Assembly (NCBI GenBank): GCA_012441205.1
Contig: GCA_012441205.1_4705.1
Reading direction: 5' to 3' (one strand)
Source of the DNA: a phage
Length of the DNA stretch: 64,000 nucleotides
Part shown: positions 8,923 to 63,458 of the stretch, piece by piece
How positions within the stretch are numbered: the first letter of the stretch is position 1
Layout of the letters: each line of letters opens with the position of its first letter
Notes under the pieces: model-generated
Seen by the model: only the letters and a program-made list of their open reading frames with translations
Database searches by the model: none
What the model was told of the DNA's origin: nothing
Position numbers and translations under genes: made by a program

Positions 8923-9900
8923 TTACTTTTTCCTGAAAATTAATGTTGGTAAGCCGTTTCTTACAGCATAATACAACACTAAGAGGTTAATCTTACCTGC
9001 GGATACCGTAAGCATTTTACGACGACGTGGTAAACTAACCGGTACGGTAGATGCCATCGTTGCGCTGTTCTTGAACGTTTGGGAATAACGTCGCAGCGAC
9101 GCTTCACCTAACAATGGAAGGAACAGATCCTCAGTAAGAATATCATCGCAGATATACGTAATCGCAAGTAACGGTGGATTCCACTCGTTCAGGAACTCGA
9201 AAATCTCGTTTGCGATACCCAGCGCGTTATTGGGAAGCGGAACCTCACGAACGTATTTCTGATTGCCTTTATCCAGCAGGATTCTTGACATACAGTAATC
9301 GTGGATTATACCCGCAACATCATCCGCTGTTTCTGCGTTCTGCATCAACGCCCGTGCTTCTTCCCAGGTCAGCTGACGTTTTGTTTCGTAGTAGGTTGGT
9401 TTCAAAACCGCGTAAAAATCGTGGATTAAGCGACCAACATCCCCACGGGTTTTCTCTGCCAACGCGATCGCGTACGCTTTCTTCTCCGCATCCGTTAAGA
9501 TCTGATTACGCCACAGTTCGTATTCGTCTAACAGCTCGGTGTATTTGGCTGTCCATTCAGAGGAAAGATAATAACCAATACTGTCAATCAATGCGTGCGT
9601 TAAAACACCCAGACGCTCGCGTTTTGGATCGACTGACGGCTCATAGACAAAAGGTAGCTTCGGTTTTTCAAAGCCGCTGGCTACGACGGTATCTGAAAAA
9701 GCGTTAGCGAAAACACCCATCGGTTTCCATGACGTAAGGAGATCCTGATATAGCATCGGATGAACGTTATTAATCGCTGTGAGTTTATCATCGAAAAGAC
9801 TCACGCTTGGATGTTCAGCATTCGCAAGCTCAAAATAAATTCTTTCGAGCAACGCCTTTACCGCATCGCGTGTCTTATCGATTGGGCCAATAGAAGCCAT
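8923..9900 (-). CDS. hypothetical protein
   Basis: 325-aa ORF in gene chain. Confidence 0.5.
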   Translation of the reverse strand: MASIGPIDKTRDAVKALLERIYFELANAEHPSVSLFDDKLTAINNVHPMLYQDLLTSWKPMGVFANAFSDTVVASGFEKPKLPFVYEPSVDPKRERLGVLTHALIDSIGYYLSSEWTAKYTELLDEYELWRNQILTDAEKKAYAIALAEKTRGDVGRLIHDFYAVLKPTYYETKRQLTWEEARALMQNAETADDVAGIIHDYCMSRILLDKGNQKYVREVPLPNNALGIANEIFEFLNEWNPPLLAITYICDDILTEDLFLPLLGEASLRRYSQTFKNSATMASTVPVSLPRRRKMLTVSAGKINLLVLYYAVRNGLPTLIFRKK

Positions 9901-9914
9901 GTAAATTATCCTCG

Positions 9915-10181
9915 TTAAAAAGTACCCATGATCGATAGGGCAATATGGTCTTTGTTCACACGCGCATTTAACGACATATCGAGACCGTTTTTCTTAATAT
10001 GCCAGCGTGCCACCAGTTCCGGTTGGTCAACGGAATACAGCCCTTCTCGATGTTGATTCAACCATTTAGCAATTGGATGCAGTTTATCGGGATTGACCAC
10101 ACCCAATTCCAACCCACCGGGTGTTAATGGTTTAGAATAAAAGTCAAGTGCGTTCCGTAAAAAGTCATCCTCGATGCTCAT
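9915..10181 (-). CDS. hypothetical protein
   Basis: 88-aa ORF; its ATG overlaps the stop of the small upstream ORF (ATGA). Confidence 0.45.
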   Translation of the reverse strand: MSIEDDFLRNALDFYSKPLTPGGLELGVVNPDKLHPIAKWLNQHREGLYSVDQPELVARWHIKKNGLDMSLNARVNKDHIALSIMGTF

Positions 10182-10292
10182 CGTAGCATACCTACCATGC
10201 CGATTACAGCAAACAGTACGCCGACAGCGCTATACGCAAGCAGCGCTTTAGCAACCCAAGATTTTATTTCCGTATACTCTTCATTATTCACC
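10178..10292 (-). CDS. small hydrophobic peptide (38 aa), putative
   Basis: Translated by hand: MVNNEEYTEIKSWVAKALLAYSAVGVLFAVIGMVGMLR; not in ORF track (under 60 aa). Confidence 0.3.
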
Positions 10293-10371
10293 ATGTCTCA
10301 CCTCGTTCGGTTATTGTCTGATCTCATACCTTTACTTAAGCGTATCCCCCGTCATTAAGACGGGGTGTTTA

Positions 10372-10746
10372 TCACCAGAGACGATTACCTTCCTCGTCCC
10401 ACCAAGCAATCGCTCGTGTCGACTCGAATGTGTTAGGGCGTAACGTCATGCCCTTGCGGTCAACGATTAACCGCAACTCAGTACCGAACCACTCAATCGA
10501 GATAAACAAACCCTTCCGAATGATTGCTTGATAACCTGATAGCCGCTCAAAGAGTCGTTGAAAGATCTCATCATGCCCACACGACACTAATGCTTCTGAA
10601 TAGCGTCGCATCGATTTTGCATCGCTAGGTAAACGTGTTTTACAATCCCACCATAACACAGCGTACATCAGTGCAGCATTACGCAATCGTAACGATTGAA
10701 CTGGTGTTAGCTGTCGTCCTTCAACATCATCGATAATGACATACAT
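10372..10746 (-). CDS. hypothetical protein
   Basis: 124-aa ORF. Confidence 0.45.
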   Translation of the reverse strand: MYVIIDDVEGRQLTPVQSLRLRNAALMYAVLWWDCKTRLPSDAKSMRRYSEALVSCGHDEIFQRLFERLSGYQAIIRKGLFISIEWFGTELRLIVDRKGMTLRPNTFESTRAIAWWDEEGNRLW

Positions 10747-10752
10747 CGCATC

Positions 10753-11007
10753 TTATTCCGCGCTTGTTTCCTTAACATGGACACATTCCGCATCGATAGT
10801 CACACCGGTAGAACGATGGGTCTCGTTGGTAGAATCAAATCCGCTGTTGAACAACACTGCGAATGTGTTATTATCCATACGAGCAAAGGTCTCCGCAATA
10901 CGATCGGGATGAAAATCAGTGCGGCTGATGGTCGATTTCACAAAAACTCCTATAAACAATTTAATTATTGGTATTAAGATTAAAGCAGGATCTGCGGACA
11001 GCAGCAT
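10753..11007 (-). CDS. hypothetical protein
   Basis: 84-aa ORF; overlaps next ORF, start uncertain. Confidence 0.3.
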   Translation of the reverse strand: MLLSADPALILIPIIKLFIGVFVKSTISRTDFHPDRIAETFARMDNNTFAVLFNSGFDSTNETHRSTGVTIDAECVHVKETSAE

Positions 11008-11465
11008 GATTCGTAACCACCTTCATGTGGTAACGTATTGCTGGTGTCAGGCCAAACGAGCTGAATACCCGCAACCTTTTTACCATATCGAGCGAAAGCC
11101 GCTATCGCATACACTTCGTTGAAGGATTCAATATCCTCTATTTCACGCACGTCAAGACGCAAGGTTTCACCCGTACCTTTCAGAGTTAGATTGCCATCGA
11201 ACGCGCCTAACGGGATGGTCTTTGCCTTCACCATGAAGTTACCCAGTTTGTTGATTGCTGAACCGAGAGCAGGGCAATAACCGGATACGAAGATTTCCGG
11301 CATTCCGTGTTCGGTTAGACCAACAGTATACATAAAGCCAGGCTCGTCGCTTCCCTCATCAGGAGCGACACTGATAATAGCCCATTGCTTTTTCTCGATA
11401 TATTCTTCGATAAAATCGTCCAGTTTTGAAAAATTGTTTTCATTAAGTTTAACTGTGTTACTCAT
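10980..11465 (-). CDS. hypothetical protein
   Basis: 161-aa ORF. Confidence 0.45.
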   Translation of the reverse strand: MSNTVKLNENNFSKLDDFIEEYIEKKQWAIISVAPDEGSDEPGFMYTVGLTEHGMPEIFVSGYCPALGSAINKLGNFMVKAKTIPLGAFDGNLTLKGTGETLRLDVREIEDIESFNEVYAIAAFARYGKKVAGIQLVWPDTSNTLPHEGGYESCCCPQILL

Positions 11466-16372: not shown

Positions 16373-17356
16373 TCAATAACGACCGTAGCGTTCCTCGAGC
16401 CGTTTTGGTTTTCTCAGAAGGCTATCTTTAAGTGGTACGACGTCGATATCAACACTCTCTGAGTAATAGCCGTTAGAACTACCATACCAACGGATAACAA
16501 CACAACCCTTTGCAGTACGGATATGGTAAAATGTCCATTGTATACGTTCGCTGTAATAACCGTAGTTATCGGTTCTTTCCTCGGTTCTTTCTTCAGCACT
16601 GAGTATCTTTTCACCGATGATATCATTAATATCGCCGTCAATGTCTTCAAGATACACCTCTTCGCAGCAATCCTGCTGATGACAGAATTCGACAACGTTT
16701 CCATCACCACGATAGAAAAGAAGGGCGATACCGTTTCGTAATTGCTCGCTCGTTACATCAGACACACAATGCAAACTTTTATCGTCGGTAATCACCAAGA
16801 CGTTGTTGATTACATGTCCGGCAAGCGCTCCGATCTTATTTACCGTGATAATCGGACGAACCGGTTCAGATTGAACGATAGGAATACGGACACAACCAAT
16901 TAAAGCCATCCGTCCTTTCTTTGGTCTAACCGCAAGGTAAGGTGATTTTCTTGGGTGGTTATGCAGACGTATTTCTAATTCGTCAAATTTAATCCCGTAT
17001 ATACCTAAGAAACGATCGAACAACCGATGAAACTCATCTGTTGCTTCTTCCAACGTTATGGTGTCTACCGTGAGTTTATGTCCCCTGAACACCCGGGTTA
17101 TATCGATAACGTCCAGTGTTTTAAAATGTATTTCCGTAAGGGGGTGATTTGTATTTTCCAGGTAAGTAATTGTTCTTTGAACCACGATTTTAGGTTGCGC
17201 ACCTTTAAAACGTTTCAGGTATTTAACACGATAGCGTGTATGATCTGATGTTAACATTTTAATCTCCTCTCCCGACTTCAGAGAATTCTTAAAATCCGTT
17301 AGTTTTGATAGATAGGGTAAGACGGCATAAAAGCCTCCCATTACGGGAGGCTTCAT
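16373..17356 (-). CDS. hypothetical protein
   Basis: 327-aa ORF. Confidence 0.5.
   Translation of the reverse strand: MKPPVMGGFYAVLPYLSKLTDFKNSLKSGEEIKMLTSDHTRYRVKYLKRFKGAQPKIVVQRTITYLENTNHPLTEIHFKTLDVIDITRVFRGHKLTVDTITLEEATDEFHRLFDRFLGIYGIKFDELEIRLHNHPRKSPYLAVRPKKGRMALIGCVRIPIVQSEPVRPIITVNKIGALAGHVINNVLVITDDKSLHCVSDVTSEQLRNGIALLFYRGDGNVVEFCHQQDCCEEVYLEDIDGDINDIIGEKILSAEERTEERTDNYGYYSERIQWTFYHIRTAKGCVVIRWYGSSNGYYSESVDIDVVPLKDSLLRKPKRLEERYGRY
17326..17353 (-). terminator. GC hairpin + TTTATGC-type terminator
   Basis: gcataaaagcctccc-atta-cgggaggct just downstream of the 17365..17634 gene end. Confidence 0.45.
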
Positions 17357-25446: not shown

Positions 25447-25491
25447 TGCACGTACCTCTTTGAATCTATTAATAAATTTTCTTTACTCACG

Positions 25492-25511
25492 TAAGTAATA
25501 TAGCCGTGAAA
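25492..25511 (-). promoter_or_regulatory. early-promoter-like motif TTTCACGGCTATATTACTTA (minus strand)
   Basis: One of four near-identical copies, each 50-100 bp upstream of a minus-strand start codon. Confidence 0.45.
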
Positions 25512-43432: not shown

Positions 43433-43488
43433 AACAACCTCTTTTCGCGGTTCCCTGTTAAAACGTCTTCTGTGACGTCTACCACAAA

Positions 43489-43505
43489 GGTAATATAAGC
43501 GTGAA
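43489..43505 (-). promoter_or_regulatory. early-promoter-like motif TTCACGCTTATATTACC (minus strand)
   Basis: Copy B of the TATATTAC family; TGACGTC half-palindrome at 43473-43479 between motif and start codon. Confidence 0.45.
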
Positions 43506-48678: not shown

Positions 48679-48767
48679 TTTACTATCCTCGGATTTCGTT
48701 AGGATTTAATTTCCAATATAAGGGCAATGTGATATGCCTTATACAGTCGATTGATGTTGTACATCAC

Positions 48768-48787
48768 TTAAGTAATATAGCCGTGAA
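48768..48787 (-). promoter_or_regulatory. early-promoter-like motif TTTCACGGCTATATTACTTA (minus strand)
   Basis: Copy C; identical 20-mer to copy A. Confidence 0.45.
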
Positions 48788-49634: not shown

Positions 49635-49661
49635 AAACCCTCCCCGCCTTATGCGGGGAGG
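49631..49661 (-). terminator. GC hairpin + TTTATGC-type terminator
   Basis: gcataaaccctccccgc-cttat-gcggggaggg downstream of 49678..50316. Confidence 0.45.
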
Positions 49662-49677
49662 GCAGCCATTAAATGGA

Positions 49678-50331: not shown

Positions 50332-50556
50332 TTAGCAATGGTTGTTAGTTGCTTCTATTTCGTCAAGATAAGGTTCTACGTCATCGCCCTCCACGAATTC
50401 GTTGAACCAACAGTCAATAGTGGAAATAACCGGTGACTGGTGTTCACATTTCTTAGATACCTTAAAAGGTACGTTATTATCCATCATACCGAGTTCGGGT
50501 CGAAAACGCCCGAAATGTTTCGCAGTCCAAATGTCTGGGACGATATGGTTGTTCAT
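50332..50556 (-). CDS. RNAP beta-prime N-terminal subunit, exon 3 (joins 52532..51282 + 50931..50917 + 50556..50332)
   Basis: Begins ATG 50554-50556, MNNHIVPDIW...MMDNNVP, aligning with E. coli RpoC QMAVHVPL...MMSTNNILSP immediately after NADFDGD; ORF-track TTG start at 50568 rejected. Confidence 0.6.
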   Translation of the reverse strand: MNNHIVPDIWTAKHFGRFRPELGMMDNNVPFKVSKKCEHQSPVISTIDCWFNEFVEGDDVEPYLDEIEATNNHC

Positions 50557-50916
50557 CAATATCTTCAATACGAATCGCTACTTCGTATCCGCAGCATTAC
50601 CTGCAGCTCCTGGTGTTACCAGGATGTTGAGAGTATATCATGTCCATATTCCAAATGGAACGTAGGACTTCCGCGCTGGATCTCGCTTGAGACCACTTAC
50701 TCGTTGAACGTTCTCCTAAAAGGAGCTTCGCTGCTGATTGGACATTGTTACGTACGGTAGGCGTCCCACTAAAGGGATTTTCATTGAAGCCGCGTACATC
50801 CGTTACCTTGTTTCTACCTTATCGGTTCCTCTTACGAGGCGTAACGGCTTTAGCCTATTCCAGCAATTCACGGAATGCATATTCTCCTTTTCAGGAGATA
50901 AGGCCATGGCTCTGGC
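50557..50916 (-). ncRNA. intron 2 (group I-like, ORF-less, 360 nt), paralogue of intron 1
   Basis: 5' exon ends in U, intron ends in G; conserved blocks and covarying hairpins shared with 50932-51281; separates micro-exon from exon 3. Confidence 0.6.
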
Positions 50917-50931
50917 ATCACCGTCAAAGTC
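50917..50931 (-). CDS. RNAP beta-prime micro-exon encoding catalytic DFDGD
   Basis: Minus-strand gactttgacggtgat = D-F-D-G-D, in frame with flanking exons under the proposed junctions. Confidence 0.65.
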
Positions 50932-51281
50932 CACGTATCTTCAGTATGAATCGCTACTTCATACCCGCAGCATTACCTGCAGCTCCTGGTGTTACCAGGA
51001 CGGAGAGATCATCTCATCACCCACGAAGGGTGTTCCGCGCTACCCTCAGCGAATTCGAGGGACATGATCGTTGAACCTTCCACCGATGATCGATGGCTAG
51101 GCTGCTGATTGGACATTGTGCGTTGGGGTGGCATCCTGGTTCAGGACTGTCATTGAAGCCTCCCAACATCCACTCACTTATTTCCGCCTCATCGGCTCCC
51201 ACAAGGGCAGAGTGGCTTTAGCCCGTCTCAGCAATTCACGGAATTCAAGCTCTTCCTTTCGGAAGGCAGGGCCTCATTTGA
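50932..51281 (-). ncRNA. intron 1 (group I-like, ORF-less, 350 nt)
   Basis: Begins right after codon GCU (Ala of ...GYNA) at 51282; ends in G before the micro-exon; paralogous to intron 2. Confidence 0.6.
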
Positions 51282-52532
51282 AGCGTTGTATCCCTTAAGG
51301 ATCATCACGCTTAACCCGATGGTGTTATCCTGCGGATCGCGTTTAACCTTGGTGATTTCAAGACATTGGTTACTGCTTCGGTCAAGTGATGGGTTTCGAA
51401 CAAAGCCACACACAATCCCATCGAACGGTGTATCAGCAATAAGCTCATCGTGCAGCTCGCTCATCATTGGATGATAATTACGGACATGTTCCGCAACGAA
51501 CGCACGTGCTGCTCTTGGCGAATAACCACGATGGAATAACTTGGATTGGATATGTTCTTTATTGGTTAAAGTAAATGGTGCGTATGGGAAATGCAGATGA
51601 TAATAACGATGGTTTGCTGTTATCGAACTGATTACGGTACGCGTGGTGAATGGATGTAATGTACCTAATATGTTTTTACGTGTGATACCTTTCTTCTTAC
51701 CAATGAACTCATCGAAAATTGCTGCGTGGTATTGCAGTAGCTTCAATTGTACTTTCGCCATCCAGTTTTCTTTCTTTCTGGCGCTCAAAGGTGTTGTTGG
51801 GTGATAGATACTATTCAACGTACCGATAGCATCGATCGCACCTTCCATTTTGCTATCTGCATAACGACCGGTTGGCGTATTCTCGATAACGAACATCATG
51901 GCCGCAGGAAAGCTGATATACTGACTGAAGAACTTATCACGATGGATACGGATGAATTCTCGTAGCGTGTCAACTTTCTCCGTGTTCTTCGGTCCACGTA
52001 ACGTAGGTCCTTTATACAAGATCTCCATGATGCGATCGAAGTTCTGTATAAAGCTATTTACGCCACGTCGTATCCCGAATACATCGAATTGCTGCTCCAG
52101 ATAGTTCTTGAGTTCGATGGGTCGTTTTACATTTGGACGGTAACTGGCATCAATGAGCCACGTCATCGTTTCAAAGCTTTTGATATTCAACTCGCTTGCC
52201 AGCACGAGATGGACCAACGGGTTAATGAACGCATCAATTCCTTCAGGAACACGCGCCCAAACCGTCGAACGAATCTCTTGTTCTGCTGGATAGGTTACAA
52301 CCGTTTTACAGTTCGGACACACCGTACCGAGCAGCTCACCACGATTGTAGAAACCACAACCACATTGTGGTGTGATATCCAACGTATCGCTGGAGTAAAC
52401 ACGGGTGATAAAACTGTTTAATTTCTTCTTCTCTTCGACGACTTTTGTATCGTAATCATTCAACAAAATCGGCGTGAAAGGAAGTTCTGCGAGCTGTCTA
52501 TCGAAACTCACGATATCGAGCATGATGGCCAT
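51282..52532 (-). CDS. RNAP beta-prime N-terminal subunit, exon 1
   Basis: Zinc ribbon CGCGFYNRGELLGTVCPNC; GKKKGITRKNILGTLHPFTTRTV (E. coli [23 protein letters not shown]); RNPSLDRSSNQCLE (NRAPTLHRLGIQAFE); LSVMILKGYNA (LHPLVCAAYNA). The ORF-track tail to 51228 is intron read-through. Confidence 0.7.
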
Positions 52533-52574
52533 GGGGTATCTCCTACAAATGAAAAAGAACGTTAGGACGTATAA

Positions 52575-52598
52575 GGGAGGGAGGTTGCCCTCCCTCCC
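52575..52598 (-). terminator. GC hairpin terminator between 631-aa gene and beta-prime gene
   Basis: gggagggagg-ttgc-cctccctccc. Confidence 0.45.
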
Positions 52599-52624
52599 GT
52601 CAGATTACATCGAACGTTCTTCCA

Positions 52625-54520
52625 TTAGAACAGGTTGAATGCCCCACCCATGTTGTTAACGCCAACATTCGGACGATCGCTACGTGCGTAGATGTTACCG
52701 GAGATGTTACCCAGACCACGAGCACGTGCTGCCATGTTACCACGAACAGCGGTACCTGCCAGATGCTGGATGTTCTCAGGACGGATGGTGAAGCCAGCAT
52801 CAGCAGCGGCCTCGATCAGCGCCTGCAGTGCTAACGGATCGAAGTCGTAACGCATTGCCCAGCCGGTTTGTTCCCAGCTACCAGACAGAACACGATCAAT
52901 GATTTCGTGACGAGCGACAACACGCTGAGACATCGTCATATCGGTACGGTCGAAGCTGTCTTCCCAAGCTTCTACGGTATCCGGGTTAGTGATGTTCATC
53001 ATGTACAGATCGTCCATATCACGAATATCGTGACGGTGACCATCCTGGTGGTTATAATGACCCAGCGGGATACGGTTACCGGTAGCGTAGACCAGTGGTG
53101 CGCCGTACTGATATTTCTTGCTGAAGCAACCCAGGGTAGTATCATCGAAGGCACGGAAGAGTGCTTTGTAACCTTCGGAGATTTCCCGGACTTCACCTTC
53201 AACTTTGCCCGTATAGATCTTCTCAGCCGCCGGGATCATACGCAGCAGCCAGCTGTATTCGCCTTCTTCCGGTACGTCGATAGAAATCAGCAGAGACGGA
53301 TACAGTACCTGTTGCAGGAACTTGTAAATCTGCTCGTTGGTTTGAGTAGACAGATCCAGCGGTGCGGTAACTTCCGGATCCAGTACCATCGCCAGAGCAC
53401 CCGGGTTATGCGGACCAATACCACGAGCAGCGTTGCTGATTAAAGACTGTGCCCACGCCATACCGCTGTTCAGCGTAGCGATGGTGCCAATCAGACCCAA
53501 CACGAAAGTGTTCGGCGTGAACGCATCCAGCTCCAGCGGGTAAGCGCTGGTCATCACGTAACGCGGTTGGTATTGTACAGTCGGCGGTACCGGATAACCG
53601 TTAACCAGAACAGGGCCTTGGTTGAAGGTCGGGTTCTGCGGGCTGTAGGTCAGGTCAATGTAACCGGTGGTTGCGACCAGACGCTGCTGACTATCGTAAT
53701 CGCTCATCGCTTGACGGATGCGGTTAGAGATAGTTACAGTGATGTCAGAACGCACAGGGTTACCAACAATATCGCTGTCCTGCATACCGCTGGTGTTGTA
53801 CTGAACGCTGCTGATTGGCTGATCGCTTGCCATCATGCCCAGGTTGAACTGCGGCAGACCCAGTTTATCGCCGAGACGGATTTCGATCGCGGTTTGGATT
53901 GCGTTATCTGCAGCAGACAGCAGGGTGGTTGCCAGATGCGCAGATTCAGCGGTGATTTCATTGGTCACCACAGCCAGACCAGCGATACGAGCAGTACCAT
54001 TAGACTTACCACCGATAGCTGCATACATTGCCGCCATGACTTCGTTGATGAACGTACCGTTCAGGTTATCAACCCAGGTACGCGGCACCAGAATGTTACC
54101 ATGCGGGCCTTGTTCTTCACGACGCGGCAGCGGAGCCAAACCGGCAACCAGTGGAAGCACATAACCGAAGAAGTGGTTATGGTCACCAACTTTTGCACCG
54201 CTCATAACAACCAGGGTCGGATACGGTACACTGTATTGGTTAGGATCGACGGTCACCATGATGAAGTCGTCTTTGAATCCTTTATCTTCCAGTTCTTTTT
54301 CCATCAGACGACGGAGATTCAGTACCTGCTCGGAGCCAGTATTACGGCTAATACGACGGCTCAGTGTACGGTTGATCGTACGCATCGTATGAGTTACTTT
54401 AGGCTGGCCAGCAAAATCTGCAGCGGTTTCCAGCGCCTCATCAGCACGTTGTGCGGTGCGGGTTTCAGCTGCACGAATTTCTACATTATCGTTACCGTTA
54501 TTACGTACGTCTAAGCCCAT
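52625..54520 (-). CDS. candidate phage-nucleus shell protein (chimallin-like); otherwise abundant early protein of unknown function
   Basis: 631 aa; own TATATTAC promoter-like motif 70 bp upstream and own terminator; immediately upstream of the beta-prime N-terminal gene; no motif-level confirmation. Confidence 0.4.
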   Translation of the reverse strand: MGLDVRNNGNDNVEIRAAETRTAQRADEALETAADFAGQPKVTHTMRTINRTLSRRISRNTGSEQVLNLRRLMEKELEDKGFKDDFIMVTVDPNQYSVPYPTLVVMSGAKVGDHNHFFGYVLPLVAGLAPLPRREEQGPHGNILVPRTWVDNLNGTFINEVMAAMYAAIGGKSNGTARIAGLAVVTNEITAESAHLATTLLSAADNAIQTAIEIRLGDKLGLPQFNLGMMASDQPISSVQYNTSGMQDSDIVGNPVRSDITVTISNRIRQAMSDYDSQQRLVATTGYIDLTYSPQNPTFNQGPVLVNGYPVPPTVQYQPRYVMTSAYPLELDAFTPNTFVLGLIGTIATLNSGMAWAQSLISNAARGIGPHNPGALAMVLDPEVTAPLDLSTQTNEQIYKFLQQVLYPSLLISIDVPEEGEYSWLLRMIPAAEKIYTGKVEGEVREISEGYKALFRAFDDTTLGCFSKKYQYGAPLVYATGNRIPLGHYNHQDGHRHDIRDMDDLYMMNITNPDTVEAWEDSFDRTDMTMSQRVVARHEIIDRVLSGSWEQTGWAMRYDFDPLALQALIEAAADAGFTIRPENIQHLAGTAVRGNMAARARGLGNISGNIYARSDRPNVGVNNMGGAFNLF

Positions 54521-54589
54521 TTGGGATTCCTCTTTTCTTAAACTTTATTAAATGACGTCATTGAATCAGCTTCTACTCGCTCATTCACC

Positions 54590-54609
54590 TAGGTAATATA
54601 ACCCTGAAA
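54590..54609 (-). promoter_or_regulatory. early-promoter-like motif TTTCAGGGTTATATTACCTA (minus strand)
   Basis: Copy D; 12-bp palindrome AATGACGTCATT at 54551-54562 between motif and start codon. Confidence 0.45.
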
Positions 54610-54774
54610 TTTTTTTCAATATTGGTGTAACCACATTGAACGATATAAACCCCTAGGCGAACGCTGCCGAGAAGCAACATTCTTTCTACATATAATCAGG
54701 ATATGTCTGTAAACTTTTACTTCTCTTATTGAGAGTAATGTCATATCCGTTTACCATCTTCTTACGGAGTTCGT

Positions 54775-55869
54775 ATGTTTCGTGTTTTAAATAACCTCCC
54801 GCGAACATCATCGGGTGTGCAACCCGTCCCTCAGAAAGACTATCTAATACGCGAAGTTCAAAGAAACCTACAGACAATCCAGAACCACTATCAAGGTTTT
54901 ACCTTCGCGGTTCAGAGCGATCACATCCTTGCGTTGCTGCTCGCACAGCTCCCTATGAGATACGACATCTCAGTACAAACTTACTACGACATGATTCTCG
55001 ATCTTACTCCAGAATTGGGTAATCGTGTTAAGTTGACAACATCAAGATACGCGGGTAAGTTATTCGACGGTGCTTTCTATCCGGGATTGCACGAAGCTAT
55101 TATCGCAACCGGTGAAAGTCGTCTTATTTCACGTGACGTTCTTGACAACTGGCGTAATTGGTCACCGGTTAGAATCGTGACGCACCCATACTCAAATCTT
55201 CGTTACATTCCTCTTCACCGAAAGCCGGTTGAAGAAGGACGAGGTTTTGCGGTCATTATGGTTGATGTACCTTTATTAGCGCTACAGTATCGAATGTGGT
55301 CTTTGGTCATGGGTCATAACGTCGACGGCAAATGGGTGGTTAAAGAACCGGTTACAAGCTTCCTTGCGAGTTTTCCGTTGGTTAACGCATTATACTCACA
55401 CAACGATGTTGTTATACGCAATCGTTGTTTGTGGGTATCTCCGGCTAAGAATCCACTCAAATCACCAATTTACGTTAACGACCTTGATAACGTATTCAGT
55501 CAAGTCGTTCTGTCCGTACAGCATCATTTATTACGAAGAAGACGAAGCTACACCGACATGCTTAAACAGATACCGAGTTTATACGGGGATCAGTACCAAG
55601 CAACCCGAATGGGTTACACCGTCGATCTTCGGCAAACGCGATGGGCAAGGGATCTGGGTTGTCTGTCATTATGGCAACAACTCGTCACGTTGCAAAACGT
55701 ATCTGAAAGCGTCGGGTTCAGCAGTCAAATCGATAATGACCTGTACCGTGCTGCCGACCGGAGTCTAAAAGAAGGTAACTGGGAGTCCTCTCCGTTACCT
55801 GGCGATTTAAGACGTGAAGTTATCGCACAGGTTGCCGACCTCTTAAAAATTCTTCCCGCTGGTGCATAA
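54775..55869 (+). CDS. hypothetical protein
   Basis: 364-aa plus-strand ORF ending at a bidirectional GC-rich hairpin region (55870-55925). Confidence 0.5.
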   Translation: MFRVLNNLPRTSSGVQPVPQKDYLIREVQRNLQTIQNHYQGFTFAVQSDHILALLLAQLPMRYDISVQTYYDMILDLTPELGNRVKLTTSRYAGKLFDGAFYPGLHEAIIATGESRLISRDVLDNWRNWSPVRIVTHPYSNLRYIPLHRKPVEEGRGFAVIMVDVPLLALQYRMWSLVMGHNVDGKWVVKEPVTSFLASFPLVNALYSHNDVVIRNRCLWVSPAKNPLKSPIYVNDLDNVFSQVVLSVQHHLLRRRRSYTDMLKQIPSLYGDQYQATRMGYTVDLRQTRWARDLGCLSLWQQLVTLQNVSESVGFSSQIDNDLYRAADRSLKEGNWESSPLPGDLRREVIAQVADLLKILPAGA

Positions 55870-55935: not shown

Positions 55936-58089
55936 TTACTCTGCGGTTTCTTGCTTCGGTAAATAACTTGCTGCGATGTCTTGGGCTAACAATGTATTGT
56001 TTTTATTCGAGATGAAAATACCATAACTTTCCATTAACGCGTAATACGAACGCACGAGCGTAGAGATCAATCGACGAATATCCATACCTTGAATAAAGAT
56101 ATCAGGAAGCCCGGAGGCTTCGATCACCGGTAATGGTATCGTTAAGTTGCTTATCGTTTTCTTATCGTTACGTACAATCCAATCACGGAAACGTTGTTGT
56201 AACCCTTTATCCTCCCAGGAATCAATCCAATCGTTAAGAAGCGTTTTGTTCTTCGTCGCCAACGGCACACGAACCCCAACATAGGGTGGTTCCTGGCAAT
56301 GGCCGTACGATTGAGCAAACACCTCTTCCCACATATCGTAAGACTGTTTCGTTACTGCAACATGCGGTTTCACTTTAACACGTGTTAAGAAATCAGGATC
56401 ACCACGTTTCATGGACTCAACGATTTCGTTTTCTAACGAGATAATATCGTCAAGAACCAATCGAATGCTGATCTTCTCGTTACGTAACAGCTTATCCATG
56501 ATACCACACATCATGCGTTCAACACGTTTGACGATCATTTTTGGTGCTGACGCATCGCGCATAACCGGACCTTTCAATTCCAGCTTCGGTGGATTGATGG
56601 GAACCCCTTCACGCATGGTCATGTATCCGTAATAGTTTTTACCCATCGAGGTTAACGACAGAATCAAGAACATATATTCGTTCTTCATTTCCATTACGTA
56701 CATATGCTCTTTCGCTACACCGATATTACCAGAACACATCGCCATCAGATGAACCGTAATCTGCGTAACCAGATAGATAAGCGTATTTGCTAAGCGCGTC
56801 GAAATTGGATTGATCTCCATATTTCCAAATCGCCACTGAACCCACTCCTGGCAGGTAAACACCGTCGAGTCGGTATCAGACAACACACCCACTTCACGGA
56901 TTGCTGACGGAAAAGCATAAACACCGGCCGGTTGGTTCTCGGTACGCCATAACGCCTTAATTAAATCAGCGTAGCTTTGGATGCGTTGCAACATTAATTT
57001 TGTCGTTGCTGCAGTAAGACGATAACCAAGTTCATTTCCTTTTTCCAGAGCTACGTAAATCGCTTCCCCGTTCAAGAACTCCGTGCATTGTGCCGTAATC
57101 CAAGCGACCGTGTTGTTATCCATGGAAGCAATAATGGCTTTAGCCTCTTCCATCGTTTCAACAGGTTCGGATGCCAGCTCGCATAACGAATCAAGAAAAT
57201 CTCGAACAAATTCAGGATTAAGCTCACGTAACGAGTACAGGTTATTGCTATACATGTAGCAGGCGCGTTCCAGTGGGGTTAAACCGGTAATTAACTCCCG
57301 GATAGTCAGTTCTTTCTCTGGGTCGAAAGTATACCGATGCAAGCATTTCGATACGTTAGCCCAAACCTCTTCCGGCGTAGGGTAATGTAGTTTGTATTTT
57401 ACCATTACCTGTTCAATGGCTTTACGATCGCTGTTGCGGACAATACTCACGATGTTTTCAATTGCGATATCACAATCGTAATAATGGAAATTGCCCGCAA
57501 GGAAGCGTTCGTTGTTCGCATTGGCTGAACCTGAAGCACAGCGACACGTTGTCGTTAAACTTGGATGCGCAATTGGATTATAAAAAGGGTTAAACTTGGA
57601 CGCCTGGGTTCCTGACAAACTGTTGTTATCTAACTTGGTGTTGGTTTGTCGTTTATCGTGTAACTCAGCTTCATCTTTACGTCCGTGTGCTTGCGCTATC
57701 GACATTTGTTTCTTTTGTTTCTTACGCAACTTACCGTTTTCAACCGCAAAGTCGCTTAGCACACTGGAACGTGTTTCACGTGGATAACAGTTAGCCCACA
57801 CCGGCGTGATAATTAAATTATTTTCTTTAATATCATTGAAGTATTGGCTGAACATGATGACTTCTTTTTCTCGATTTCCTTCGGTGCGCTGTGTTAATAC
57901 AAGGCAGTCGGGATCAACCATCCCGTATTTTCCACCAGGACGAACCGTATCAAGGACAAACTGCAACGCTTCCTGCTGTGATATCCCACGCATGCGCATT
58001 AAGAACAGGGTATAATCCTGTACCGCTTCTTTGGTCATATCCAACGTACGGCCATATCCGTTTTCATCGTAAAAGAACGGATTTTCCAT
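55936..58089 (-). CDS. hypothetical large protein
   Basis: 717-aa ORF; no motif recognised by eye. Confidence 0.5.
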   Translation of the reverse strand: MENPFFYDENGYGRTLDMTKEAVQDYTLFLMRMRGISQQEALQFVLDTVRPGGKYGMVDPDCLVLTQRTEGNREKEVIMFSQYFNDIKENNLIITPVWANCYPRETRSSVLSDFAVENGKLRKKQKKQMSIAQAHGRKDEAELHDKRQTNTKLDNNSLSGTQASKFNPFYNPIAHPSLTTTCRCASGSANANNERFLAGNFHYYDCDIAIENIVSIVRNSDRKAIEQVMVKYKLHYPTPEEVWANVSKCLHRYTFDPEKELTIRELITGLTPLERACYMYSNNLYSLRELNPEFVRDFLDSLCELASEPVETMEEAKAIIASMDNNTVAWITAQCTEFLNGEAIYVALEKGNELGYRLTAATTKLMLQRIQSYADLIKALWRTENQPAGVYAFPSAIREVGVLSDTDSTVFTCQEWVQWRFGNMEINPISTRLANTLIYLVTQITVHLMAMCSGNIGVAKEHMYVMEMKNEYMFLILSLTSMGKNYYGYMTMREGVPINPPKLELKGPVMRDASAPKMIVKRVERMMCGIMDKLLRNEKISIRLVLDDIISLENEIVESMKRGDPDFLTRVKVKPHVAVTKQSYDMWEEVFAQSYGHCQEPPYVGVRVPLATKNKTLLNDWIDSWEDKGLQQRFRDWIVRNDKKTISNLTIPLPVIEASGLPDIFIQGMDIRRLISTLVRSYYALMESYGIFISNKNNTLLAQDIAASYLPKQETAE

Positions 58090-58388: not shown

Positions 58389-58802
58389 TTACTGATTAAT
58401 CAAGTCGTTAGCAACAATCTTGGTGTAACCCGCCTGATTAAGAATTTGATTAATTTTCGTCACGTCGGTCGCATCCTCAATAACGATGCTGGGTTTATAG
58501 ATCAGCGTCTTGGTAACGACGATTGTACTCTCCTTAATCCAAGGAATCCCTAGAATCACATACTCACCATCGGCTGTAATGACCTCGACGTAATTGTATT
58601 TCGTCGGATCGTTCGGTACACTAGACGGGAGCCGGGAATAAATCTGTTGGTGAATGGCGTCTACATCACGACCGTTACGTACAGCTGTGCGATAATTGTA
58701 CACAGCGCTAATTTCTACTCCGTTGAAGTTAACCCCAAGTTCTGGGGCGTACACATCAAAACTCACAACAGAGCCAATCTTTTCTAAATCAGAAGCTGGC
58801 AT
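58389..58802 (-). CDS. hypothetical protein
   Basis: 137-aa ORF. Confidence 0.4.
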   Translation of the reverse strand: MPASDLEKIGSVVSFDVYAPELGVNFNGVEISAVYNYRTAVRNGRDVDAIHQQIYSRLPSSVPNDPTKYNYVEVITADGEYVILGIPWIKESTIVVTKTLIYKPSIVIEDATDVTKINQILNQAGYTKIVANDLINQ

Positions 58803-62477: not shown

Positions 62478-63458
62478 TTAGAAAAGCAAGAAACCGCTAT
62501 TCTTCGCTTCCGCTACAGTTTCGTCACCAACTTTCGGCGCTTGTTGACGTGCGTTACGATGTTCGATGTAACGTTTCGCTTCGTCCGCGATCTGTTTGAT
62601 AATACCCCCTAAACGATCGGTACTTAAAACAAACGACGTCGCTTCACGAATTGGGCTGCTTTCAGGCACAAAACCATCGCAGCTGTAAATAGCGCTAACG
62701 CCCATGACTTTTGTCGCGTCTTTCGGATAAAGCGTACAGAAAGCAATCGGGCTATCGTTCTCTTTCGTCCAATCGTATCCCATGAACGTATTCAGTTCGG
62801 TGATCGTTGGTTCCAAACCGGTAACACGTGGATGGTTTAAGAAGTTTTCCAGGTCGGCGCTGTCAAGACGACGGTTCTCGCCAGAAAACAGAACACAAAG
62901 CTGGCTAATAACAACCTGCACGTCCAGGTTGACATCCTGCTCCGATTTCCCATTTTCGCCATTCATGTGATAGCTAACAATCACTGGACGTTTCAACCCT
63001 TCTGCAGCCGCCATCAGTCCTTTGAAGGTGCGATCGGCGTTGATCGTTTGACGCTCGTCATCGAACGAGGCAACGATGCAACACACCACACGTTCACCAC
63101 GTTCCAGCAGGTTAGCAACCAACGCAGGACCTGCAACAGAACCTGAACCACCGCTCAGACTAAAGACCACGATATTAAATTTACCTGGCGTATGCTTATT
63201 CAGAATACCCGGGATTTGTGAACAGATCAGTTCAGCGTTCTCATCACGCTTCTTACCAGAACCGTCTAACTCACGACCGGCTACATCTTTAAAGATGTAA
63301 ATATGATCGTCACCCAGTGTGCTATCGCGTAGGTTAGCGCGGCTGGTATCGACATACGTCATGCTGTGTAATCCTTTCGCGACTTCGCCTTCAAATGCTG
63401 AGCCGATTTCGCCACCACAACCACCGACAGCCCAAATATGTACTTGGTTCTCTTGCAT
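62478..63458 (-). CDS. phuZ: tubulin/FtsZ-family GTPase (PhuZ-like phage tubulin)
   Basis: T1-loop-like HIWAVGGCGGEIGSAF (G-x-G-x2-G) and T4 signature SLSGGSGSVAGPALVA (GGxxGxGxAP); 326 aa, typical of phage tubulins. Confidence 0.7.
   Translation of the reverse strand: MQENQVHIWAVGGCGGEIGSAFEGEVAKGLHSMTYVDTSRANLRDSTLGDDHIYIFKDVAGRELDGSGKKRDENAELICSQIPGILNKHTPGKFNIVVFSLSGGSGSVAGPALVANLLERGERVVCCIVASFDDERQTINADRTFKGLMAAAEGLKRPVIVSYHMNGENGKSEQDVNLDVQVVISQLCVLFSGENRRLDSADLENFLNHPRVTGLEPTITELNTFMGYDWTKENDSPIAFCTLYPKDATKVMGVSAIYSCDGFVPESSPIREATSFVLSTDRLGGIIKQIADEAKRYIEHRNARQQAPKVGDETVAEAKNSGFLLF

Follow-up and report, generated by a model that had tools for sequence, protein, structure and literature searches.

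A Goslar-type chimallin gene and the adjoining RNA polymerase beta-prime gene in a jumbo phage genome

Does a 631-amino acid open reading frame (ORF) beside a phage RNA polymerase gene encode the shell protein of a phage nucleus? An earlier note on this DNA had arrived at that reading from the size of the predicted protein and from gene order. The window analyzed here is a 64,000-nucleotide stretch of phage DNA, and the ORF is present in it exactly as described, at positions 52625–54520 on the minus strand with an ATG start. We conclude that this ORF is almost certainly the chmA gene of a Goslar-type (Goslarvirus, Chimalliviridae) jumbo phage of E. coli and Salmonella; its product, chimallin, self-assembles and is the main protein of the phage's nuclear shell. 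The protein is near-identical to the published Goslar chimallin, and the finding is already known. A second feature of the locus, a beta-prime gene directly downstream that we propose is split by two group I introns, merits a further look more than the shell finding does.

Identity of the reading frame

In a sequence search of the PDB, the product of the ORF matched 'Chimallin' 7SQT_A (also 7SQU and 7SQV) over residues 1–631 with an E value of 0 and 1413 bits. The search additionally returned PhuN of phiPA3 (8FNE_A, 6.5e-21) and the chimallins 7SQQ_A (2.6e-10) and 8IGG_E (2.7e-10); all four PDB sequence matches are chimallin or PhuN. Pfam assigned one family only, PF25677 Chimallin_Phikzvirus, at 92.3 bits over residues 21–595, above the gathering score of 27 bits. 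PHROGs likewise returned a single family, 4795 'nuclear shell protein' (4.9e-52, residues 19–629). The shell protein reading was thus confirmed by PDB, Pfam and PHROG matches, including the profile comparison to chimallin families that the earlier note had suggested. Long ORFs on the plus strand inside the chmA region (e.g. 53567–54514) were rejected as antisense shadows, as it is the minus-strand product that matches a solved protein over its full length.

The solved protein is the chimallin of Escherichia phage vB_EcoM_Goslar (PDB 7SQT, 7SQU, 7SQV), which is gp189 in the numbering of GenBank MK327938 and YP_009820873 (HOV27_gp246) in RefSeq, where it is labelled 'nuclear shell protein'. The window is collinear with Goslar and 97.4% identical to it across 40001–64000, and the DNA at 52400–54800 is 97.7% identical. 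Both chimallins are 631 amino acids long and share 98.7% amino acid identity, with eight substitutions (window residue, position, Goslar residue): E76Y, K80T, G81R, M88F, T90A, F455Y, T461V and A474L. Residues 1–75 and 475–631, which carry the assembly tails, are unchanged. The segments NTS, CTS1 and CTS2 are identical to those of Goslar, a likeness that concerns sequence conservation and not assembly. From the 98.7% full-length identity to the solved Goslar structure, the two-domain core fold predicted for the window protein follows, in which the N-terminal domain is alpha/beta and the C-terminal one GNAT-like. At the nucleotide level, the two chmA genes differ at 52 positions, in 37 synonymous and 8 non-synonymous codons; judged by these codon differences, chmA is under purifying selection.

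The neighboring genes are those of the same phage group. As the earlier note had it, chmA lies directly upstream of a gene for a beta-prime N-terminal subunit, and this neighbor matches PHIKZ055 (PDB 7OGP_A, 1.4e-60). The note had also stated that gp54 and gp55 adjoin in phiKZ; this is consistent with the window, as the phiKZ chimallin is gp54 (PMC9365700) and the window neighbor is homologous to PHIKZ055. The PhuZ-like tubulin reported for the same window is found at 62478–63458 on the minus strand, where the ORF matches PHROG 4733 'tubulin PhuZ' (3.2e-68); against Pfam Tubulin it scores 29.6 bits, below the GA of 33, and its Goslar orthologue carries the RefSeq label 'tubulin PhuZ'. Additionally, a divergent family B DNA polymerase (Pfam PF20286, 679 bits) is encoded at 55936–58089 on the minus strand, with the SH3 partner of the divergent DNA polymerase at 58389–58802. 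Core genes of the Chimalliviridae, namely the non-virion RNA polymerase beta-prime N-terminal subunit, PhuZ and the divergent DNA polymerase, thus occur together, and this context indicates that the window comes from the genome of a chimallivirus of the Goslarvirus type. No tRNA genes were found in a scan of all 64,000 nucleotides.

The exact chimallin protein is present in the public collection, where its 90% cluster has 249 members. It is found on contigs of ~235–240 kb in isolate assemblies of E. coli (including O157) and Salmonella and in metagenome assemblies, and the NCBI label for these exact copies is 'hypothetical protein'. Its occurrence under that label on contigs of bacterial isolates could suggest a resident element, in which chmA would be a decaying, non-functional relic that no longer builds a shell. 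We regard this as highly improbable, as the chmA frame is intact and at full length, synonymous differences prevail over non-synonymous ones (37 vs 8), the tails, promoter motif, ribosome-binding site and hairpin are identical across 11 genomes, and ~235–240 kb is the size of a whole phage genome. Moreover, such contigs have been read as persistent infections by complete lytic chimallin-encoding phages (10.1101/2024.12.31.630880). That study describes 59 genomes of 'persistent' Goslar-like phages that lie within bacterial assemblies, and almost all of them encode a protein >90% similar to Goslar chimallin (10.1101/2024.12.31.630880), and the contigs with the exact protein match this published population. 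The region had no match in complete RefSeq E. coli genomes, which means that no finished chromosome or plasmid of E. coli in the set is the source of the window.

Two other readings of the ORF are weaker still. There is next to no chance that the product is a structural component of the virion, such as a capsid protein, and not a shell protein: a weak PHROG match to 'virion structural protein' (4.8e-11) is the sole signal of this kind, and it belongs to the divergent neighbor at 54775–55869 on the plus strand. The ORF itself has none; its single Pfam and PHROG families are both chimallin or nuclear shell and its four PDB matches are all chimallin or PhuN. The earlier note had held that capsid or virion homology, or a missing chimallin match, would speak against a shell protein; Pfam, PHROGs and the PDB search returned chimallin in each case, with no capsid or virion family in Pfam or PHROGs. 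Just as remote is an enzymatic role, as a GNAT acetyltransferase or with a toxin-like activity, in place of a structural lattice: the C-terminal domain of chimallin is structurally similar to AtaT-type acetyltransferase toxins (PMC9365700), but Pfam detects no acetyltransferase domain in the chmA product. We found no evidence that contradicts the chimallin assignment.

The main value of this assignment lies in annotation. Chimallin defines nucleus-forming phages, and 8 residues separate the allele in the window from a chimallin with published structure, localization and knockdown. In isolate assemblies of E. coli O157 and Salmonella, the very same protein still bears the name 'hypothetical protein', so that many complete genomes of Goslar-like phages go unrecognized in bacterial assemblies.

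Flanking signals and diverged patches of chmA

A Shine-Dalgarno sequence, AAGAGGA, can be read at 54528–54534 on the minus strand, 8 nt before the chmA ATG, and is the same in Goslar. The CTG share of leucine codons is 0.83 in chmA vs 0.17–0.44 in five neighboring genes, and its GC content is 52.5% vs 44–48% in the same five. By these measures chmA is strongly biased to host-optimal codons, which fits very high expression.

The earlier note had placed an early-promoter-like element at 54590–54609, and the octamer TATATTAC indeed falls inside that interval, at 54593–54600 on the minus strand. It is part of the longer early-promoter-like motif TTCAGGGTTATATTACCTAGGTG at 54586–54608 (minus strand), 72 nt upstream of the chmA ATG. 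The bare octamer is not above chance, with 4 copies in the window vs 2.25 expected and 16 of 100 shuffles reaching 4. The 23-nt context TTCASGNNTATATTACNTNNGTG was also found 4 times, vs 0.00 expected and 0 of 100 shuffles. All four TATATTAC copies share the TTCASGNNTATATTACNTNNGTG context and are preceded by A-rich sequence, and each TTCASGNNTATATTACNTNNGTG copy lies on the minus strand, in an intergenic position upstream of a minus-strand gene. Predicted promoter consensi that resemble the motif have been listed for 201phi2-1 (...WTTTRARR_BTATATTACDWHDGTG), phiKZ (TATATTAC) and OBP/N1M2 (TTTCARRYAKATATTATYWAAGTG) (PMC7058600 Table 2), and the early motifs of 201phi2-1 and phiKZ are experimentally mapped classes (PMC11512511). 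No sigma-70-like site was detected upstream of chmA on the coding strand by a sigma-70 scan. We infer that the 23-nt motif is a putative early promoter of chmA. Between chmA and the beta-prime gene there is no early-type motif, and read-through from the chmA promoter may therefore feed the beta-prime gene.

A 92-nt spacer separates the chmA stop codon from the start of the next downstream gene. Goslar and the window share the neighbors of chmA as well as its promoter motif, ribosome-binding site, hairpin and 92-nt spacer. The motif, the ribosome-binding site and the whole spacer are the same in Goslar and 10 other public genomes, and these flanking signals stay unchanged alongside as many as 52 nucleotide differences in the coding sequence.

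The spacer holds a GC-rich hairpin with a perfect 10-bp stem and a GCAA loop (GGGAGGGAGG-GCAA-CCTCCCTCCC) at 52575–52598 on the minus strand; it begins 26 nt past the stop codon of chmA. The folding energy of a 71-nt segment that includes it is -31 kcal/mol (z = -4.9), a stability that 0 of 200 shuffles reached. The earlier note had called this chmA's own terminator. The hairpin is located exactly where that note had put it, but it is followed by TTATACG with no T-run, and a consensus terminator scanner did not call it; without a U-run, it is not an intrinsic (rho-independent) terminator in the textbook sense. The hairpin is identical in 11 of 11 relatives. A hairpin with a TTAT(G/A)C tail recurs three more times on the minus strand, at 49638–49662, 17331–17353 and 631–651, and this shared tail suggests a phage-specific 3'-end signal. 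The chmA hairpin may be a terminator-like or a transcript-stabilizing element, and may not terminate transcription.

Within chmA, the differences from Goslar are unevenly distributed. Codons 74–97 (patch A) hold 17 of the 52 (binomial P ~9e-12) and codons 453–475 (patch B) hold 10 (P ~2e-5), so that nucleotide identity to Goslar is 76% and 86% in the two patches and 98.6% in the rest of the gene. Among 16 sampled public chimallin variants, mean column identity is 99%. Patch A has two haplotype classes in these variants, EKGDMT and YT(R/Q)DFA, and these assort independently of the variants of patch B. As the patches are elevated at synonymous and non-synonymous sites alike, the simplest reading is that they are short tracts acquired by recombination with more distant relatives. 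That the patches are instead exchangeable allele cassettes, tuning shell compatibility (co-assembly) between co-infecting Goslar-like phages or escaping a host factor that recognizes chimallin, is a speculative idea that we consider unlikely.

Proposed intron structure of the beta-prime gene

In beta-prime, DFDGDA is the catalytic Mg-binding motif. The 434-amino acid ORF downstream of chmA aligns to phiKZ gp55 only as far as ...LKGYNA, the point at which the universal motif NADFDGD would be expected to go on. At this break, the group I intron model of Rfam (RF00028) matched twice over its full length, with 30.1 and 30.4 bits (E ~1e-4), both below the gathering score of 50, and DFDGD is encoded between the two. 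We propose that two group I introns interrupt the beta-prime gene, one on each side of a micro-exon for the catalytic DFDGDA.

In this model, all on the minus strand, exon 1 of the non-virion RNA polymerase beta-prime N-terminal subunit (the phiKZ gp55 homologue; 7OGP_A, 1.4e-60) would run from 52532 to 51282 and end in ...GYNA. The 434-amino acid ORF extends 54 nt beyond it into the intron, and its last 18 codons would be intron read-through. A first putative intron of 350 nt, at site b (50932–51281, 30.1 bits), would be followed by the 18-nt micro-exon GACTTTGACGGTGATGCC at 50914–50931, which encodes DFDGDA. A second of 357 nt, at site d (50557–50913, 30.4 bits), is paralogous to the first, and neither contains an ORF. 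Exon 3 (50332–50556) would then supply MNNHIVPD..., 74 amino acids plus the stop codon, which in the Goslar annotation is a separate hypothetical protein. The boundary of the micro-exon was taken from alleles that lack the second intron: three sampled loci without the site-d intron (L003, L007 and L010) read GAC GGC GAC GCA ATG AAC (DGDA|MNNH), which fixes the junction.

The predicted spliced product aligns continuously with 7OGP_A (phiKZ gp55) over 21–475, at 251 bits and 2.1e-73 vs 209 bits for the raw ORF, in a search made with a 15-nt micro-exon (496 amino acids, without Ala423), where the final 18-nt model gives 497 amino acids. A structure of 95 pairs is common to seven intron copies from sites b and d, and compensatory changes occur in 27 of these pairs. 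In the window's site-d intron, the 5' splice position is occupied by C and not by U, and its pairing partner is changed to compensate. Repeated peptides in plus-strand ORFs at 50440–51074 had been considered as tRNA or repeat genes and were rejected, as they are antisense to the two paralogous group I introns.

In 10 public contigs with identical chimallin, the beta-prime exons are 100% identical while the intron content differs. Inside the beta-prime gene, a span of 26 nt holds four insertion sites: a follows GGG T, b follows GCT of Ala417, c follows GAY TT and d follows the Ala423 codon. Intron a occurs alone, with an I-HmuI/NUMOD-like ORF, in L006, and intron b occurs alone in L003, L007 and L010. 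Introns a and d are combined in L009, and b and d in L011 as in the window. Introns c and d are found in Goslar (with an HNH gene), in L004 and L005 (without the HNH gene) and in L002, and introns a, c and d in L008, where they leave two 13-nt micro-exons. No intron-free beta-prime gene was found among the sampled genomes. A 25-amino acid exon duplication in L002 was dismissed as a scaffolding artefact, as it adjoins a run of N. The first beta-prime intron thus differs between the window and Goslar, and the window is without Goslar's HNH endonuclease. The 5' ends of the window's site-b intron and of the common site-d intron are closely similar, and ACGCT is present in both target sites; together these suggest that one intron spread to a nearby similar site.

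Introns in phiKZ RNA polymerase genes, including gp55, were already known (PMC11512511), and a role in competition between phages has been shown for an intron endonuclease of a chimallivirus (PMC12908238). The paper on the Goslar genome makes no mention of introns, and in the literature searched we found no published description of the split catalytic motif or of the multi-site intron arrangement. If the model is correct, the catalytic-center codons of an essential RNA polymerase gene would be split by self-splicing introns that vary in number and position among near-identical phages. Such an intron-variable beta-prime gene would be a natural system in which to study intron mobility and the competition between co-infecting nucleus-forming phages.

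Shell assembly and comparison with known chimallins

The function of Goslar chimallin is well described. Laughlin et al. solved the protomer, tetramer and cubic assembly of the 631-amino acid gp189 by cryo-EM (PMC9365700), and Birkholz et al. found that GFP-ChmA (gp189) forms a shell in infected E. coli, which PhuZ rotates (PMC9891218). Knockdown of ChmA by CRISPRi-ART reduced plaquing at least 10,000-fold and arrested infection at the vesicle stage, as reported by Armbruster et al. (PMC10541120). In the arrested cells, chmA transcripts were at control levels and the transcriptome matched the early virion RNA polymerase program (PMC10541120). Taken with cryo-ET, these GFP and knockdown data show that Goslar ChmA assembles into a shell enclosing phage DNA in infected cells and that replication depends on it (PMC9891218; PMC10541120). 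As GFP localization, structure and knockdown are published for Goslar ChmA, the experiments proposed in the earlier note already exist for a protein with 8 differences in 631 residues. By this near-identity, we infer that structure, assembly, localization and essentiality would hold for chmA of the window as well.

The course of events would then begin shortly after injection, when the phage RNA polymerase packaged in the virion would transcribe chmA from its TATATTAC-type early promoter, a step suggested by the motif together with published Goslar and phiKZ transcription data. The mRNA would be translated at a high level on host ribosomes, as the strong ribosome-binding site and host-optimal codons suggest. 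Chimallin monomers would link via the flexible NTS, CTS1 and CTS2 tails, which would dock into neighboring protomers, to form tetramers and then a single-layer square lattice with ~2 nm pores. This lattice would enclose the replicating phage DNA, keep out host nucleases and ribosomes and separate transcription from translation, and PhuZ filaments would rotate the nuclear compartment.

Beyond the Goslar type, the chimallin of 201phi2-1 (gp105; PDB 7SQQ/7SQR/7SQS) belongs to the same family as that of the window. Its N-terminal domain is alpha/beta and its C-terminal domain, which lacks catalytic residues, is GNAT-like; its NTS, CTS1 and CTS2 tails dock into neighbors to form the lattice, with near-identical tail interactions in Goslar (PMC9365700). 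The homology of the window chimallin to 7SQQ and 8IGG spans approximately residues 62–596, and these two chimallins share only ~19–21% identity with the Goslar-type protein. The Goslar and 201phi2-1 protomers nevertheless have a near-identical fold, with an r.m.s.d. of 1.8 Å, and a tail-mediated lattice, while CTS2 is shorter in the Goslar type than in 201phi2-1 and makes different contacts (PMC9365700). Lastly, PhuN of phiPA3 (gp53; PDB 8FNE, 8FV5) and gp54 of phiKZ are homologous shell proteins of phages with Pseudomonas hosts, distant in sequence from the chimallin described here.

The split beta-prime gene beside chmA

The RNAP beta-prime N-terminal gene (50332-52532, minus strand) adjoins the chimallin gene, chmA, and is interrupted by two group I introns, at 51281-50932 and 50913-50557 on the minus strand. 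Both introns lack ORFs and are paralogous to each other. Between them lies a micro-exon of only 18 nt (50931-50914, minus strand) which codes for the catalytic DFDGDA. Read-through into intron sequence is the source of the tail of the 434-aa beta-prime ORF, and the small ORF at 50332-50568 is really exon 3 of the same gene; the Goslar annotation lists its counterpart as gp185, a "hypothetical protein". Alignment to phiKZ gp55 is continuous for the spliced product, which scored 251 bits versus 209 bits unspliced when searched in an earlier version with a 15-nt micro-exon (496 aa; 497 aa in the final model).

Promoter-like motif and hairpins

The 23-nt early-promoter-like motif TTCASGNNTATATTACNTNNGTG has three more copies in the window, at 48765-48787, 43483-43505 and 25488-25510, each intergenic, on the minus strand and upstream of a minus-strand gene. 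Additionally, the minus strand has GC-rich hairpins at 49638-49662, 17331-17353 and 631-651, each with the tail TTATGC(C/T)G. They share the architecture of the hairpin after chmA, whose tail reads TTATACG. A hairpin with a TTAT-type tail and no U-run may represent a phage-specific 3'-end or terminator signal.

Composition, variation and public records of chmA

Host-optimal codon bias is far stronger in chmA (52625-54520) than in its neighbours (CTG/Leu 0.83 versus 0.17-0.44), and GC content is 52.5% versus 44-48%. Differences from Goslar concentrate in two short patches, codons 74-97 (54230-54301; 76% nucleotide identity) and codons 453-475 (53096-53164; 86%), with 98.6% identity outside them. 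Among public variants, the haplotypes of one patch combine independently of those of the other, a sequence pattern indicative of mosaic recombination inside the shell gene. Only 2 positions in the 254-nt spacer separating chmA from its divergent neighbour are changed relative to Goslar. This neighbour (54775-55869, plus strand, 364 aa) belongs to PHROG 3938, of unknown function, with a weaker second match to a "virion structural protein" PHROG.

Identical chimallin has been deposited many times as "hypothetical protein" (e.g. EFE5661883.1, EIF3301279.1), assigned to E. coli O157, E. coli or Salmonella enterica. The contigs that carry it, about 240 kb long, are complete genomes of Goslar-like phages lying unrecognised in bacterial assemblies.

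Beta-prime introns across related phages

We compared the beta-prime region of Goslar (L001, 9069-10880) with that of ten public loci, L002-L011 (about 9200-11050). Intron content varies among the latter despite identical chimallin and identical beta-prime exons. Four group I insertion sites fall inside 26 nt of the catalytic-loop codons, and at least six intron combinations occur across L001-L011, some introns carrying HNH or I-HmuI-like endonuclease ORFs. In L008, three introns interrupt the gene and there are two micro-exons of 13 nt each; no intron-free beta-prime gene was found among the genomes sampled.

In the window, the second (site-d) intron ends in ~68 nt that almost exactly match the 3' end of the first (site-b) intron, a similarity suggesting that the two have recombined. 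At the site-d 5' splice site (50905-50920, minus strand), GCC|A pairs with UGGC, placing a C-G pair at the splice position, whereas the site-d intron of other genomes has the usual U.G wobble (GCU|U with AGGC).
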